Source: Polyangiaceae bacterium
GTDB lineage: Bacteria > Myxococcota_A > Polyangia > Polyangiales > Polyangiaceae
Assembly: GCA_033763455.1 (NCBI GenBank)
Contig: JANRKO010000028.1
Location: 32,001 to 96,000 of the forward strand
DNA length: 64,000 nt
Reading direction: 5' to 3'
This document shows, piece after piece, positions 53,586 to 61,355 of the stretch (its first letter is position 1; each line of letters begins with the position of its first letter). The notes below the pieces were generated by a model. That model was not told where the DNA came from, ran no database searches, and saw only the letters and a list, made by a program, of their open reading frames with translations. Both the position numbers and the translations under genes were made by a program.

Positions 53586-53843
53586 CAATCGAACGCGCGC
53601 ATCCGCACGCTGCCTCGCTTCTACACCACCGATGTGACGTTTCTCAGCTGACCGCCGCGCCGATCCAGCACACGCCACGTATTCCGATTTTTCGGATTTG
53701 GTGGCGCATCAAATGCGCGAGACGTGAACCCGTCGCGCAAGTCGTTCGTGCCGAGCGGCGACAGGTTGGCGGCGAGATCTGCAGAAACCGTTTTTCGAAT
53801 AGCCGCTTGCCTCGCCGGGCAGAGCGCTGCTAAGCGTCTTCCT

Positions 53844-54296
53844 ATGAAGTCGATAACCCAAACGACGCGACGCGCCTTGGCGGTGTTGCTACTGTTGCCA
53901 CTAAGCGGCTGCTATAGGGCGACGTTTTTCGAGAACCCTACTGCTGTTCGCGGCAATGAACACGAGCGCTGGACAGATTTCTTTATCTTCGGTTTGGTTG
54001 GCACCCAAGATTTCTCCATCAAGGAGTTTTGCCCGAGCGGCGAGGTGGCGCAGGTTCGCACCGGGGCGAACTTTGGAACTGGCATCGTTGGGTTTTTGAC
54101 GATTGGGATCTACACGCCACGAAAACTCTATGTAACGTGTGCCGCAACGGGCAAGGCGGCGCGGCGTGAACTGGAGATTGACGCTACTTCCTCAGGTGAG
54201 CCTGTAGCGGCAAAGATTCGCACTGGGAATTTAGCCGTACCGGTTAACATTCAACGGGTCAAGTCGGCTACGTGGCGACTTCAGGAGCGGAGCTGA
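53844..54296 (+). CDS. Bor/Iss-family lipoprotein
   Basis: LSGCY lipobox, FFIFGLV, CPSG, LTIGIYTPR...TC. Confidence 0.8.
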   Translation: MKSITQTTRRALAVLLLLPLSGCYRATFFENPTAVRGNEHERWTDFFIFGLVGTQDFSIKEFCPSGEVAQVRTGANFGTGIVGFLTIGIYTPRKLYVTCAATGKAARRELEIDATSSGEPVAAKIRTGNLAVPVNIQRVKSATWRLQERS

Positions 54297-54299
54297 GCC

Positions 54300-54734
54300 A
54301 TGTACAAGAATCGCAACTCCCGAACGCTGCTTGGCCTGTTTCTCACGTGCCTCCCCCTCTGCCTAAGTGGGTGTTACACGACCACCATTCACTCTGGGAA
54401 ACCTGCCGCGGCGCCGAGCCTCGAATACGATCAGAAGTGGCATCACGGCCTGGTGTGGGGGATCGCCGAACTCAGCGGCCCTTACGATCTGTCAAAAATC
54501 TGTCCACTCGGGTGGGCGAAAATTAAGACCGAAACCTCATTTCTGAATGGTTTCGTCGAGGCTGTGACCAGTGGTGTCTATGCGCCCCAGACGATCACCG
54601 TCATGTGCAACGCCTCTGAGGGTCCCGCCGCGCCATCCACTTCTGCTAAGCCCGCTGCGCCTCCCACCGATACGCCTGTTCCCCCTTCAACGGAGCCCGC
54701 TGCCCCGGTCGAGCCAAGCGCTAGCCCCGAGTGA
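54300..54734 (+). CDS. Bor/Iss-family lipoprotein with Pro/Ala-rich tail
   Basis: LSGCY, LVWGI, ICPLG, ETSFLNG, GVYAPQTITVMC. Confidence 0.8.
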   Translation: MYKNRNSRTLLGLFLTCLPLCLSGCYTTTIHSGKPAAAPSLEYDQKWHHGLVWGIAELSGPYDLSKICPLGWAKIKTETSFLNGFVEAVTSGVYAPQTITVMCNASEGPAAPSTSAKPAAPPTDTPVPPSTEPAAPVEPSASPE

Positions 54735-54948: not shown

Positions 54949-55172
54949 AGCGCTAATCATGCCCCGCCCGGCCGCTTGAAGCGGGGGCGATTTAAGGAAA
55001 GTCACCAACCTGTCGCAAAGCTCATGGCTAGCGAGGCGCTTCGCATGCCAAGTACCGCCCGGATGGTCGAAACCCCCTTGGATGGTGCGGGATTTTGTGG
55101 TTATGCTGCGCCGCTCCCTATGGGAGTAGCTCATTGACTGCAAGCGGACGTTCGGAGAACGAAGGAGAGATC

Positions 55173-56087
55173 ATGGCAAACTTTGGAACTCTGATTAAGA
55201 CAACGCGCGGGCGCCGCGTGGCTGCTGGCATTGCGGGCGCCGCAACACTTGCGAGCGCGGGTGCCTACGCCGCGGTTAGCCTCAACGCGAGCAGCGGTGA
55301 GATCCAAGGCTGCTACGACCGACAGGGCCGGCTGCGCGTACTCACGGGCCCGAACGATGCCTGTGAACGCAATGAGCAAGCTATCAGCTGGAACAAGCAA
55401 GGCCCCGAGGGAGCCCAGGGCCTTCCTGGGATACAGGGGCCCGCAGGTCCGGTGGGACCGGCGGGAGCGGATGGAGCACCTGGTCGGGATGGACGCGATG
55501 GCCTTCAGGGCGCCATCGGCCCAATGGGGGCAATCGGGCCTGTTGGTCCTCAGGGGCCTGCAGGGCCTCCGGGTTCAAGTGGTGGAGGAGGCGGTCAGCC
55601 AGCCCCGGCGGCCCACGAGGCCGATGTGTTCTTGAAGATCGGTGACATTAAGGGCGAATCGACGGACACCAAGCACAAGGACGAAATCGAGATCGAAAGC
55701 TTCAGCTGGGGCCTTAACAACGCGGGTTCGTTAAGCTCCGGCGGGGGAGCGGGCTCTGGCAAAGTGAGCTTTAATGATATCCAGCTTACCAAGCGCGTCG
55801 ATCTCTCAAGTGCCGCTTTGGCTCTCAACGGCGCGACAGGCAAGCATCTGCCTGAGGCCACCATCACGATCCTAAGGCCTAGCCAGAAGACGGGCGAAAA
55901 GGTCGAATATCTGAAGATCAAGCTGACGGACGTCTTGGTGACTTCCGTGAGTCAGGCGATCGATACGAGCGCCACCGCCGCCGAGAGCATCTCGCTCAAT
56001 TTCTCCAAGATCGACTTCCAATACACGTCGGAAGTAGCACCGCCCAATGGGTTCGGGTGGGACATCAAACAGAACACGAAGCTTTGA
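55173..56087 (+). CDS. hcp: Signal peptide - two-Cys cap - collagen repeat - Hcp (T6SS tube) fusion protein
   Basis: AAGGAG RBS; signal peptide ending AGAYA; Gly-X-Y x19-20; [63 protein letters not shown]. Confidence 0.92.
55401..55580 (+). repeat. Collagen-like Gly-X-Y repeat (19-20 uninterrupted triplets)
   Basis: [60 protein letters not shown]. Confidence 0.95.
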
Positions 56088-57658
56088 GCCAGAGTGGGGC
56101 TGATTTCAAGGCGGCATTGACCGCCTACGATCAAGTTGCCTACCCAGGCCACGCCTACCCACAGACGCACCCCACACGCCTGGGCGCGATGGCTCAGCTA
56201 CTCGGGTTAACGCCAGCGCCCGTTGAGCGTTGCCGAGTTTTGGAGCTCGCCTGTGGGGACGGCGCCAATCTTATCCCCATGGCCGTGGCGCTGCCGGGCG
56301 CTACCTTCGTCGGCGTGGACGTCGCAGCGCGTGCGATCGCCGCGGGGCAAGAGATTGTGGCCGAGCTCGGCCTCCGGAACATCGAGCTTCGCGCGGGCGA
56401 CGCTTCCGCCCTGGGGCGCGATTTAGGGGAGTTCGACTATGTGATCGCCCACGGGGTCTATTCGTGGGTGCCAGAAGCCGTGCGCGACGGGCTGCTCGCA
56501 ACGATCAAGGCACACCTGGCGCCGGGTGGGATCGGTTATGTGAGCTTCTCCGCGTATCCTGGCGCCTATTTTCGCGAACTCGTGCGCGAGCTCATGCTCT
56601 TTCACACGGGCGAGGGCGCGCCACCCACCGAGCGCCTTCAGCACGGAATCGATTTCTTGCGCTTTGTTCGCGAAGTGCACGGTCCCGGAACGGCTTACGC
56701 GGCCGCCCTGGATCAAGAGCTTGTGCGCGTTTCCAAAGCGGACCCAGGCTACGTCTTTCACGATGATTTCTCTGAAACGAATGCCCCGATCTATTTTTCG
56801 GCTTTTGCTGAACACTTGGCCACACACGATCTTGCCTACCTGTGTGACGCGACCTTCGATTACTTCTTCGACCCACGCCTTTCGTCGGCTGTACGCGAGC
56901 AGATCAGCAGCTACGCCGGGGGAAACATCATTGCCGAACAGCAGTACCTCGACTTCATCCAGGGCACACCCTTCCGCCAAACGCTGGCGTGCCACGCGAG
57001 CGCACCGATTGATAGAAAGTTCGACGCGACGCGATTGTTCCCGCTCTTGGCTTCGGCTTGGCTTGCTCCTACACAGCCGGACCCCGACATCCTGGGCCCA
57101 ACCCGTGTTTGCTTTCGCAGCCAAGATCTTCGAGAAATCGAAACGGAGGAGCCGCTCGCCAAAGCTTTGCTCTTGGAGCTATCCCAAGCTTGGCCTGAAG
57201 CGCGTAGCGTTCAGTGCATTTTTGACAGCGCCCTCAGGCGCATCGGGGCGCCTCCACCCGATCCATCGGGGGCGCCTGGGTACGCTCCGCACGCGCTCCG
57301 GGTTCTGGAGCGCACCGTTCTTATGGGCGCCGCTACCCGCTTGATCTCTGTGTGGCACGGCAGCTTTGTGGGTATCGGAGTACCCGGCGATCGCCCGCTC
57401 GCAAGTCCGCTCGCTCGCCTTCAAGCGAGTCGTGGAGAACTAGTAACGAGCCTTCGCCACACGACAGTACGCCTTCAAGATGCCCCTGCACGTGGCCTGC
57501 TTGAGCTGATGGATGGCACCCGCACCCGCCAGGACTTGTTGGTAGCGCTCCGCGACCGATTGGCCGAGTCCGACCCAACCTCTGCCCATGACCTAAACCT
57601 GGAAGCGCTCAACCGCGTGCTCAACGGGTTGGCGGAGCGTGGTTTCGTTTTGGGTTAG
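56084..57658 (+). CDS. Class I SAM methyltransferase with MethyTransf_Reg-like and C-terminal winged-helix domains (PKMT-like)
   Basis: YD..AYP...[48 protein letters not shown]....FRQTL, LMDGTRT; TTG 56084 overlaps the hcp TGA. Confidence 0.88.
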
Positions 57659-59570: not shown

Positions 59571-60716
59571 GTGCTCCGCTCACTCGAACTCAGCAACTTT
59601 CGAGCCTTCCAGAGTTTCTCTCTTGAAGGCCTTGGACAAATAAATTTGTGCGTCGGCACTAATAACTGCGGCAAGACCTCGATCCTCGAAGCCGTAAGCA
59701 TCTTGGCGTCGCGCGGTCGTCCGGAATCGCTTTGGTCCGCGCTTGCCCGTCGCGGTGAGCAGTGGTTCGAAGATGATACTAGGGGTCCGGGCCGCCTAGA
59801 AGTCGATATTTGCCATCTGTTCTATGGTCATGAGCTTTTACCAAATGCGCAGTTCTCAATTACAGGAGTAAACGACACGAGGACGCAGAAAATCACCGCC
59901 ACGGCCGTTGAGCGCGACCCCGCTCAGGAGAACACTGAAGGCCCTGATCGCATATCAGCTCGTCAGGGTACCCTGTTTGATCCAGGCGACACTGAAAATT
60001 CGCTCGGGGGGAGGATGTCGTTGGAGCTACGATGGGAGGGTTTCAACAGCGAGGTAACTCAGCAGTTTCTCGTATCGCGACGCGGAGGCCTGGTTAGCGA
60101 CGTTCTCGAACGATCGACCAGAAAGCGCGACGACGACGCCACTCCGGTTAGATCGATTACGACCGAAGCACTGACACGCGACGAAGTCGTCGCCATGTTC
60201 GAAGCCATTGTGCTAACCCCGGAGGAACAAGTCGTCATTGATGCGCTCAAGACGATCGAACCTGCTATCGAACGCATTGCTCCGATTGGCTCTTCGCGAC
60301 GCCGATATTTCCCCGTTGATCGGGGTGGAATTGTCGTAAAGTTAGCGAACAGCAACCAGCGCATCCCCATAGGCAGCATGGGAGACGGGATCTGGCGGAT
60401 GCTTGGAATCGCTTTGTCGCTAGCGCGAGCCAGGGGCGGGATCCTCCTCGTCGACGAGATTGACACGGGATTTCACCACTCGGTCATGGCCTCCATGTGG
60501 CGGATGGTTCTTGAAACCGCCTTAAGGCTCGACGTCCAGGTATTTGCGACCACCCACAGCCGCGACTGCTACGAAAGCCTTGCTTCCATTTCACGCGCGG
60601 ATGCATCGGAGAGTCGTGTGTCTATCCAGCGGATCGAGCGCGGAAACCCCAAGGCCGTAGCCTTCTCCGAAAGTCAGATAGTCATCGCTGCAGAACGCGC
60701 CATTGAGGTGAGATAA
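59571..60716 (+). CDS. ABC-type ATPase (AAA_15/AAA_21)
   Basis: NFRAF, GTNNCGKTSILEA, SMGDG signature, LLVDEIDTGFH, QVFATTHS. Confidence 0.92.
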   Translation: MLRSLELSNFRAFQSFSLEGLGQINLCVGTNNCGKTSILEAVSILASRGRPESLWSALARRGEQWFEDDTRGPGRLEVDICHLFYGHELLPNAQFSITGVNDTRTQKITATAVERDPAQENTEGPDRISARQGTLFDPGDTENSLGGRMSLELRWEGFNSEVTQQFLVSRRGGLVSDVLERSTRKRDDDATPVRSITTEALTRDEVVAMFEAIVLTPEEQVVIDALKTIEPAIERIAPIGSSRRRYFPVDRGGIVVKLANSNQRIPIGSMGDGIWRMLGIALSLARARGGILLVDEIDTGFHHSVMASMWRMVLETALRLDVQVFATTHSRDCYESLASISRADASESRVSIQRIERGNPKAVAFSESQIVIAAERAIEVR

Positions 60717-60719
60717 CCT

Positions 60720-61355
60720 ATGCGCGTCATGTTGGTTGAGGGATCAGATGACCTGCGTGCAATCCCCCACCTCTTGGAGACAGCCGGCGTGGCGTGGGGC
60801 CGAAAAGATAAGCCAATTGTCAAAATTATCCAATGCGAAGGGGTGGCAACAATGTTGGCACCTGACTTCATCACGACACATCTAAAGGCATCAGGTCTGG
60901 TGGCCCTGGGGGTTATCGTGGATGCGGACAATAGCGCGCAAGACCGTTGGAGAACGATCCGCGAACGAGTGCTCGACCTCTACTCCGATGCTCCATCTGA
61001 CATGCCCGCCACGGGAGTAATTCTGCGCGCGACGGGCAAACCCACGTTTGGCGCATGGATAATGCCAGACAATGTGAACCGCGGGATGCTTGAGACGTTC
61101 CTGCTTTTTCTCAGGCCCAAGGACAATCCGTCGCTGCTTGCGTACGCACAGGAGGTTATCCAAGAGGCCAAGAACCGGGGCGCACCGTTCCTGGAACAGC
61201 ACCAGGACAAGGCCGAGATTCACTCTTGGCTGGCTTGGCAGGATCCCCCTGGGAGGCAGTTGCACAACGCCATCATGGAGAGAATGTTGGGGAACAAACA
61301 CGAGTGTATTGAATCATTTGTTGCATGGTTTCAGGCGCTTTACTCCCAAAAATAG
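60720..61355 (+). CDS. DUF3226-like TOPRIM-fold protein
   Basis: MLVEGSDD, GVIVDAD, WIMPDN..GMLETFL, DKAEIHSWLAWQDPPG. Confidence 0.82.
   Translation: MRVMLVEGSDDLRAIPHLLETAGVAWGRKDKPIVKIIQCEGVATMLAPDFITTHLKASGLVALGVIVDADNSAQDRWRTIRERVLDLYSDAPSDMPATGVILRATGKPTFGAWIMPDNVNRGMLETFLLFLRPKDNPSLLAYAQEVIQEAKNRGAPFLEQHQDKAEIHSWLAWQDPPGRQLHNAIMERMLGNKHECIESFVAWFQALYSQK

Follow-up and report, generated by a model that had tools for sequence, protein, structure and literature searches.

A collagen-fused Hcp protein with a predicted export signal, encoded beside a lysine methyltransferase in a Polyangiaceae bacterium

Introduction

The tube proteins of the T6SS are leaderless and assemble in the cytoplasm, as exemplified by the Hcp/TssD family and its member Hcp1 of P. 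aeruginosa (PDB 1Y12). A gene in a 64,000-nucleotide stretch of a Polyangiaceae genome (the window) encodes a protein of the same family and fold, in which the core and the glycine loop are kept. In contrast to Hcp/TssD, this protein (collagen-Hcp) carries an N-terminal signal peptide, a cap and a collagen segment, the cytoplasmic cysteine is lost, and no TssB, TssC, TssF, TssK or VgrG was found in the genome. Its leader, scored by a heuristic, is conserved, which separates it from the leaderless tube proteins.

Hcp is also fused to another module in the specialised Hcp effectors, the Hcp-toxin fusions of Enterobacteriaceae (PMC10433429, available text), but the extension here is N-terminal and structural and lies behind a leader, with no toxin domain and no T6SS. 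The order of cargo, linker and Hcp is the same in engineered Hcp1 scaffolds (Vps4-, GspE- and TrwK-Hcp1; PDB 6AP1, 4KSR and 7O42), whose N-terminal fusions through an 18-residue linker retain the Hcp1 hexamer (PMC5413351, accessible part). These scaffolds are cytoplasmic laboratory constructs, whereas collagen-Hcp is natural and apparently exported.

Bacterial collagen-like proteins contain a Gly-X-Y run without a need for hydroxyproline (PMC4066190, available sections). Like Scl1 and Scl2 of Streptococcus and Lcl of Legionella, collagen-Hcp has a leader, a small globular domain and a Gly-X-Y run, and it shows both the export signal and the uninterrupted run that mark a collagen-like surface protein. 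It differs from Scl and Lcl in having no LPXTG or other anchor, only 19 triplets, and a putative six-fold ring former instead of a trimeric head. The profiles NF038329, NF038330 and NF046116 matched it weakly, over the collagen only (23–33 bits against cut-offs of 325–500).

The gene that follows encodes an enzyme matching PKMT2 of the pairs Rickettsia PKMT1/PKMT2-OmpB and Acinetobacter KmtA-AtaA. Relatives of this enzyme act in the cytoplasm on exported surface proteins, which are methylated either ahead of secretion or in its course (PMC8232902, available text). KmtA methylates the trimeric adhesin AtaA at more than 130 lysines and lowers adhesion, and the targets of the family are unknown in most genomes that carry it (both from the accessible sections of PMC11784438). 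The putative substrate encoded in the window is likewise predicted to be exported, but it is an Hcp rather than an autotransporter, the two genes overlap, and the pair also occurs in monoderm actinobacteria.

By fold, collagen-Hcp is an Hcp. By the tests applied to each class, it is not a T6SS tube protein, an Hcp effector, an eCIS component, a protein of the Scl/Lcl kind or a Tat substrate. A full-text literature search, which covered few subscription papers and no supplementary gene lists, found no paper that describes an Hcp as exported, fused to collagen or methylated.

The gene and its protein

The coordinates of the locus are collected in Table 1. A GGAG precedes the ATG at 55173. A longer frame opens with TTG at 55095; the methionine equivalent to that at 55173 is the start in most homologues. 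The reading of this frame in the earlier note as a leader, a two-cysteine cap, 19–20 triplets, a glycine/proline linker and a complete-looking Hcp domain agrees with the Pfam matches and with the homologues, and both the Hcp and the Collagen profiles scored above their cut-offs. For the collagen segment the margin was small (27.7 bits against 27.2), although in 10,000 shuffles of the protein the longest Gly-X-Y run was 8. After the 19 triplets, GSS-GGG-GGQ keeps the register, giving 22 in all. PF05638 covered all 129 positions of the Hcp profile (E 1.6e-37), and TIGR03344 was also above its cut-off.

Table 1. Coordinates of the features discussed (window positions unless stated otherwise).
Feature	Position	Strand	Basis or remark
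Tandem Bor-like lipoprotein genes, upstream	53724-54296 and 54300-54734		
Leader-cap-collagen-Hcp gene (P0001)	55173..56087	+	304 aa, one uninterrupted ORF
Sec-type signal peptide, residues 1-33, predicted cleavage AYA/A	55173..55271	+	heuristic
Two-cysteine beta cap, residues 34-76 (Cys47, Cys64), boundaries approximate	55272..55400	+	homologue alignment, AlphaFold
19 Gly-X-Y triplets, residues 77-133	55401..55571	+	Pfam, shuffle test
Gly/Pro/Ala linker, residues 134-149	55572..55619	+	sequence; pLDDT <50 at 134-142
Complete Hcp/TssD domain, residues 150-304	55620..56084	+	Pfam, TIGR03344, structure fit
PKMT1/2-type protein lysine methyltransferase	56084..57658	+	PF10119, PF21782, PDB matches
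Second Hcp of the genome, signal peptide, without collagen	G000:C39:138337-138954 (L002 1360-1977)		

In the AlphaFold model the cap forms three strands and is predicted with confidence (pLDDT about 90), as is the Hcp domain. The modelled Hcp part fits PDB 1Y12 with a TM score of 0.87 (by target), an rmsd of 2.0 A and 39% identity. Cys47 and Cys64 of the cap are invariant in all 51 aligned homologues. The Hcp domain retains the Gly-rich GxGK loop and has no cysteine at position 220, where cytoplasmic Hcp typically has one; the chain ends with this domain and bears no C-terminal toxin extension. No lipobox, membrane helix, sorting signal or LPXTG was found in the sequence of the mature protein.

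A misassembled join between collagen and Hcp is excluded by independent homologues 82%, 63% and 51% identical and by the sister genome G002. Contigs from four read runs spanned no collagen-Hcp joint in the pieces shown, and speak neither for nor against it. Promoter and terminator scans were at chance level.

Export

The leader was scored by hydropathy and charge in 51 aligned homologues. In this protein it is basic, then uncharged, and ends in AYA/A. All 51 had a hydrophobic stretch, 50 had a basic n-region, 42 had an AxA-like end and none had a lipobox; Ala33 was invariant in 17 of 17. The proposal that the protein leaves by a signal peptide is thus supported, within the limits of a heuristic, by a leader conserved in 50–51 of 51 homologues. 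The weak hint of Tat seen earlier did not hold: a pair of arginines stands near the hydrophobic stretch in 28 of 51 homologues and a Tat-like motif in 15, but this protein lacks the motif, and several homologues have KK or RK instead. Sec appears to be the better reading.

The cysteine at position 220 occurs in 84% of 39 T6SS Hcp and in 100% of 27 leaderless orphan Hcp, against 5% of 42 collagen-Hcp domains and 12% of the six-domain ones described below. Its loss and the invariant cap cysteines are two independent signs that would fit an oxidising compartment. Surface display has no evident route, because no lipobox, membrane helix or sorting signal is present; in a diderm host the protein would have to cross the outer membrane or stay under it.

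Absence of an injection machine

Seven T6SS and phage-tail profiles were run over the whole genome (6.56 Mb, 93.67% complete), with controls that matched each time. TssC, TssB, VgrG/GPD, TssF, TssK, phage sheath and phage base V all gave no match, which for these components extends to the whole assembly the earlier remark that no T6SS genes were recognisable. An eCIS cluster would have a phage-type sheath, a gp19-type tube and a baseplate; PF17482, PF05954 and PF04717, which bear on it, were among the negative profiles with matching controls. PF06841 gave no match either, with a control that was equally silent. A tblastn search with open frames longer than 150 aa from five T6SS loci returned Hcp, PKMT and a few weak matches not assigned to the T6SS. 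No gene for a baseplate, spike, cap or length-control protein lies near the collagen-Hcp gene.

The genome holds two Hcp matches, and the second likewise has a leader. It lies between a CbiX-domain gene and a glutathione peroxidase, in unrelated surroundings. That collagen-Hcp is a minor subunit of a filament of this second Hcp was considered and is not favoured: G002 and most of the actinobacterial genomes have a single Hcp match, and the two paralogues are at most 39% alike and are not sisters.

Among 61 related genomes, Hcp was found in 26 and TssC in 28. Hcp without TssC occurred in this genome, G002 and G023, where every Hcp bears a leader (leader calls in the 61 genomes come from the 30 of 44 Hcp matches that were read). 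Three TssC-positive relatives also encode a leader-bearing Hcp; therefore, export and the T6SS are not exclusive. In a sample of Actinomycetota, Hcp was found in 13 of 301 genomes, a count that includes the unpublished genome G400, and none of the 13 had TssC. In the actinobacterial family of G544, Hcp was present in 35 of 201 genomes and TssC in none of the 35. TssC was also absent from all 17 collagen-Hcp genomes read, of which 15 are actinobacterial, most are incomplete assemblies and the related ones are not independent. This count, which answers the check proposed earlier, supports independence from the T6SS. A phage-type sheath was found in 3 of the 17, and in none of the nine in which PKMT is adjacent.

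Domain counts, a probable ring and ring stacking

The number of Hcp domains per chain was tallied in the best 150 cluster representatives; 143 were scanned, seven with collagen only being left out, and 103 bore Hcp. Chains with collagen (n=41) had one domain in 33 cases and two in eight, and none had more. Chains without collagen (n=62) had six domains in 41 cases, two in 10, three in five, four in three, five in two and seven in one. The best-150 ranking favours multi-domain proteins, but not six over five or seven. One or two domains with collagen fit a ring, because three chains with two domains or six chains with one make six. The idea that trimeric collagen could sit on a hexameric Hcp is thereby supported indirectly, and the hexameric ring is probably kept in collagen-Hcp.

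Twelve long Hcp-only matches stood at the top of the search; the nine that are complete each consist of exactly six tandem domains preceded by a Planctomycete-type leader, whereas the other three are apparently cut at the N-terminus. One six-domain chain was modelled as a single compact body (pTM 0.77), a fold that the model may have reached by likeness to solved rings. More widely, dozens of proteins (P0121-P0129, P0241-P0362) have exactly six tandem Hcp domains, many with a Planctomycete-type LExR leader and some with PKD or Ig-like tails, and are candidate single-chain rings. Large flanking domains are frequent in six-domain chains.

The Gly-rich GxGK loop, which would help Hcp rings to stack, is retained in 33 of 42 collagen-Hcp domains, compared with 31 of 39 T6SS Hcp. 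Isolated rings stack weakly: those of E. coli Hcp1 have a ring-ring affinity of KD 7.2 uM and form no tubes in vitro without engineered cysteines (PMC3925092, accessible part). With this and the lack of a surface anchor, the surface filament or lattice put forward in the earlier note was not borne out.

Homologues and distribution

Among the best 120 homologues, 54 have cap, collagen and Hcp behind the leader, 39 have a leader and Hcp only, one lacks nothing but the cap, and the remaining 26 are plain. The architecture search suggested earlier thus shows the layout to be common among these matches. In dozens of clusters the reading frames remain intact, at identities as low as about 35%. The closest labelled full-length homologue (51%) is from a Polyangiaceae bacterium and others are from Solirubrobacteraceae; leader-Hcp forms without collagen include Nitrososphaera. 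The distribution is patchy, and the gene is absent from two of three genomes of the same genus. A scan of a genome collection gave no collagen-Hcp among the 80 loci listed. A phylum search of 300 genomes with the whole alignment, scoring the best seven candidates per genome, gave no additional full-length copy, a negative of little weight. Of 30 loci read in the family of G544, 15 encode collagen-Hcp; two of these (L164, L178) are frameshifted and at least two have no cap. In a tree of Hcp domains, the collagen-fused ones are scattered rather than united in one clade, and the backbone is weakly resolved; this pattern allows repeated fusion or saturation. A phage origin was rejected, as a viral scan gave collagen matches only (13 loci) and a viral fold search only distant tail-tube matches.

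The leader-cap-collagen unit also occurs on other heads. In metagenome loci, Hcp lay in the same frame in only 7 of 79; the other heads included LTD, TSP3, a phage collar and a gp19-like tube domain. To judge from these fusions, the unit is a mobile module. Because most cap-collagen loci carry a head other than Hcp, Hcp may be one interchangeable head among several. At L236 and L288, a stretch of 2.3 kb contains a cap-collagen gene, an Hcp gene separate from it and a methyltransferase. A plausible path is that an hcp-methyltransferase unit left a T6SS cluster, persisted free of the machine and gained an export module.

The adjacent lysine methyltransferase

The frame of the PKMT overlaps the Hcp stop codon with a TTG at 56084; an alternative in-frame GTG lies at 56057. 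The earlier note mentions neither this enzyme nor the second leader-bearing Hcp, nor that the leader-cap-collagen unit is mobile. The enzyme has the SAM-binding, regulatory (PF10119) and winged-helix (PF21782) domains of its family and aligned to Rickettsia PKMT2 over nearly its full length (PDB 5DOO, E 2.3e-59, residues 3-485) and to PKMT1 (PDB 5DNK, E 3.2e-56). It lies directly 3' of collagen-Hcp in 9 of 17 genomes from two phyla, with otherwise unrelated flanks, and is the only neighbour common to different phyla. The stop codon of Hcp is overlapped in 14 of 17 evaluable loci. On metagenome contigs, a PKMT follows three of seven collagen-Hcp genes; of the remaining four, two had less than 1 kb read after them. 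Among genomes of the G544 family, PF10119 was found in 27 of 35 Hcp-positive genomes and 17 of 166 Hcp-negative ones. The earlier-listed Bor-like lipoproteins were rejected as partners, since they are absent in G002 and at all other loci. A fusion of Hcp and PKMT by frameshifting, suggested by the fixed frame of the two genes, was also rejected, with no slippery site visible by eye and no such fusion among the 120 long matches listed.

Three families of methyltransferase were counted around Hcp. Within 1 kb, one was found at 9 of 17 collagen-Hcp loci (all PKMT), 1 of 19 leader-Hcp loci without collagen (G400 again included), 23 of 33 leaderless Hcp in TssC-negative genomes (PKMT, TPR-methyltransferase or DUF7059 type) and 2 of 28 TssC-positive loci; nine more of the last lay at 2.1–2.5 kb, making 11 of 28 within about 2.5 kb. 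Eight of the 17 collagen-Hcp genes have no PKMT at their side (in one case a contig end made the flank unreadable), and in G002 the enzyme is cut after residue 200. The enzyme is not required for collagen-Hcp. As it is missing beside 8 of 17, cut in G002 and commonest beside leaderless orphans, it may be inherited rather than needed. A second PKMT is encoded elsewhere in this genome.

PKMT trees group the enzymes by type of partner. The enzyme of the window and two other collagen-adjacent copies form a clade with 99% support, and the join of this clade to the actinobacterial collagen-adjacent one has 54%. Of 20 PKMT loci situated away from Hcp in the family of G544, 12 adjoin eCIS genes and eight adjoin unrelated genes. 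The lysine content of collagen-Hcp is 8.6% with an adjacent PKMT and 5.3% without, a difference of little weight as the rows are few and related.

A proposed function and its alternatives

From the sequences and models we infer, with somewhat more confidence than an even chance would carry, that collagen-Hcp is a Sec-exported Hcp hexamer that is independent of the T6SS, bears two collagen stalks, serves as a scaffold or adhesin of the envelope or matrix and is probably methylated before export. It would work like a bacterial collagen-like surface protein set on an Hcp ring, and not as a part of a T6SS. An exported ring is better supported than either tubes or Tat export. By analogy with OmpB and AtaA, the chain and the PKMT would be made from a coupled two-gene unit and the enzyme would methylate lysines of the unfolded chain in the cytoplasm, a step that we judge evenly balanced. 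The chain would very probably then be exported by Sec and lose residues 1-33 to signal peptidase. Quite likely, the cap cysteines would pair as a disulfide and six Hcp domains would close into the usual ring. Six collagen segments could form two triple-helical stalks with the caps at their tips; the rise of a collagen triple helix is 0.29 nm per residue, from which each stalk would be roughly 16 nm long. Collagen chains of adjacent rings could also wind together into a mesh. With about equal chances for and against, the envelope or extracellular matrix may be where the particle acts, as a scaffold or a multivalent adhesin; Hcp would be its oligomerisation hub, and methylation would tune how well it adheres or resists proteases.

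Another possibility, which we regard as unlikely, is the filament of the earlier note: the rings would join head to tail in a free-standing extracellular tube or pilus-like filament with the collagen stalks as bristles. The GxGK loop is about as frequent as in T6SS Hcp (33 of 42 domains against 31 of 39), L251 joins the cap-collagen unit to a T4 gp19-like tube domain, and PKMTs away from Hcp are often beside eCIS genes (12 of 20 loci), so that the enzyme follows tube-building loci. Such a tube would nevertheless have to form from rings that, in E. coli, associate weakly (KD 7.2 uM) and give no unaided tubes in vitro (PMC3925092, available text), with no baseplate, spike, cap or length-control gene nearby, and the single-chain six-domain relatives often carry large flanking domains. 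It is improbable, too, that the exported ring is a binding cavity or decoy whose lumen captures toxins, peptides or other cargo in the envelope, with collagen as a spacer. The inner face of Hcp1 does bind and stabilise Tse2 (PMC10433429, accessible sections), core residues are kept across the exported forms and the hosts have no T6SS of their own, but no conserved gene for a cargo or partner accompanies collagen-Hcp besides the cytoplasmic methyltransferase.

A further reading is a decaying T6SS relic, in which a leftover hcp-pkmt pair acquired its collagen module by accident and serves no selected function. This reading draws on the occurrence of PKMT and two other methyltransferase types near hcp in T6SS clusters (11 of 28 TssC-positive loci, within about 2.5 kb), the patchy distribution, the frameshifts in L164 and L178 and the truncated PKMT of G002. 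We hold it to be very improbable, as frames are intact to about 35% identity in dozens of clusters, the cap cysteines and glycine register are invariant, the free cysteine is lost only in exported forms and domain counts are non-random. We give still less credence to a T6SS or eCIS that lies in an unassembled part of the genome and uses collagen-Hcp as a specialised subunit, or to an internal start that yields plain cytoplasmic Hcp. The assembly is 93.67% complete, a GTG at Val152 has a GAGG just upstream and a phage-type sheath occurs in 3 of 17 genomes; yet TssC is absent from 17 of 17 collagen-Hcp genomes and the sheath from nine of nine with an adjacent PKMT, the signal peptide would take the chain out of the cytoplasm, where tubes are built, and comparison of the 14 collagen-Hcp loci read showed neither a conserved start codon nor a conserved ribosome-binding site where the Hcp domain begins.

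Beyond this one protein, the T6SS-independent exported ring could belong to a second, widespread life of Hcp. Tentatively, and with less than even confidence, we suggest that Sec-exported, self-assembling six-membered rings form stalked particles, meshes or tubes without an injection machine on bacteria and archaea, and are modified by dedicated lysine methyltransferases inherited from contractile-system loci. As parts of the same suggestion, such rings would be built from monomers, collagen-stalked chains, two-domain chains on collagen trimers, or six-domain single chains.

Significance

The standard assay for T6SS firing detects Hcp in the medium, and in genomes the presence of a T6SS is called from Hcp genes. 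An exported Hcp without a T6SS, in monoderm actinobacteria and Nitrososphaera among others, would break both assumptions. Collagen-Hcp is built from known parts, and would become a new kind of system if it were seen to form rings, meshes or tubes. It would clearly exemplify how a fold derived from phage tails was domesticated for a role other than injection. The rule of one, two or six domains predicts structure directly, and through the overlapping PKMT gene this enzyme family gains a candidate substrate. If the second life suggested above is real, PKMT-type enzymes would methylate tube proteins of the T6SS and of eCIS. A natural particle of collagen on a ring could also be a ready scaffold for nanomaterials.

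Observations at other loci

Several arrangements of Hcp and methyltransferase genes were seen elsewhere. A TPR-plus-SAM-methyltransferase gene directly follows leaderless Hcp in TssC-negative genomes of several phyla (L034, L043, L064, L067, L069, L070), with further such loci at L080, L082, L096, L100 and L105. At L155, L156 and L158-L163, eight of eight actinobacterial loci have leaderless Hcp directly followed by PKMT, with no TssC and a sheath in two of the eight; the pair appears to be a cytoplasmic two-gene module. PKMTs beside Pvc16/eCIS-core genes form a clade of their own (L205, L210-L214, L216-L218, L220, L221, L223; actinobacterial). In the T6SS clusters L042, L059, L104 and L108, PKMT lies between hcp and a gp25/TssE gene, and CxxCxxCC or DUF7059-type methyltransferase genes were present in those of the clusters that were scanned.

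Other Hcp genes have different companions or leaders. At L288 (1-2230), L236, L031, L045 and L055, a dirigent/AOC-barrel gene with a twin-arginine-like leader directly precedes a leaderless Hcp; a DUF7059-type methyltransferase is nearby, and cap-collagen is present in L236 and L288. The leaderless Hcp might leave by Tat together with this partner. At L112 (1363-2103; G213, TssC-positive), an Hcp with a twin-arginine lipoprotein-like leader adjoins a plain Hcp. The Verrucomicrobiota loci L086 and L107, without TssC, have a tandem leader-Hcp pair, the second extended at its C-terminus, followed by a CxxCxxCC gene. Divergent Hcp-like domains at L171, L181 and L183 stand behind a GNRA-containing leader (LQRMAGNRAV in two), and these genomes carry an eCIS sheath. 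Cap-collagen is fused to a 280-aa head in L251 (2323-3162) and L254; a T4 gp19-like domain was recognised by Pfam in L251 only (E 8.7e-8), and a profile comparison of that head with the Hcp alignment gave no match.

Within the window, positions 59571-61355 encode an AAA ATPase plus DUF3226 pair, which we take to resemble an AbiE-like defence module.
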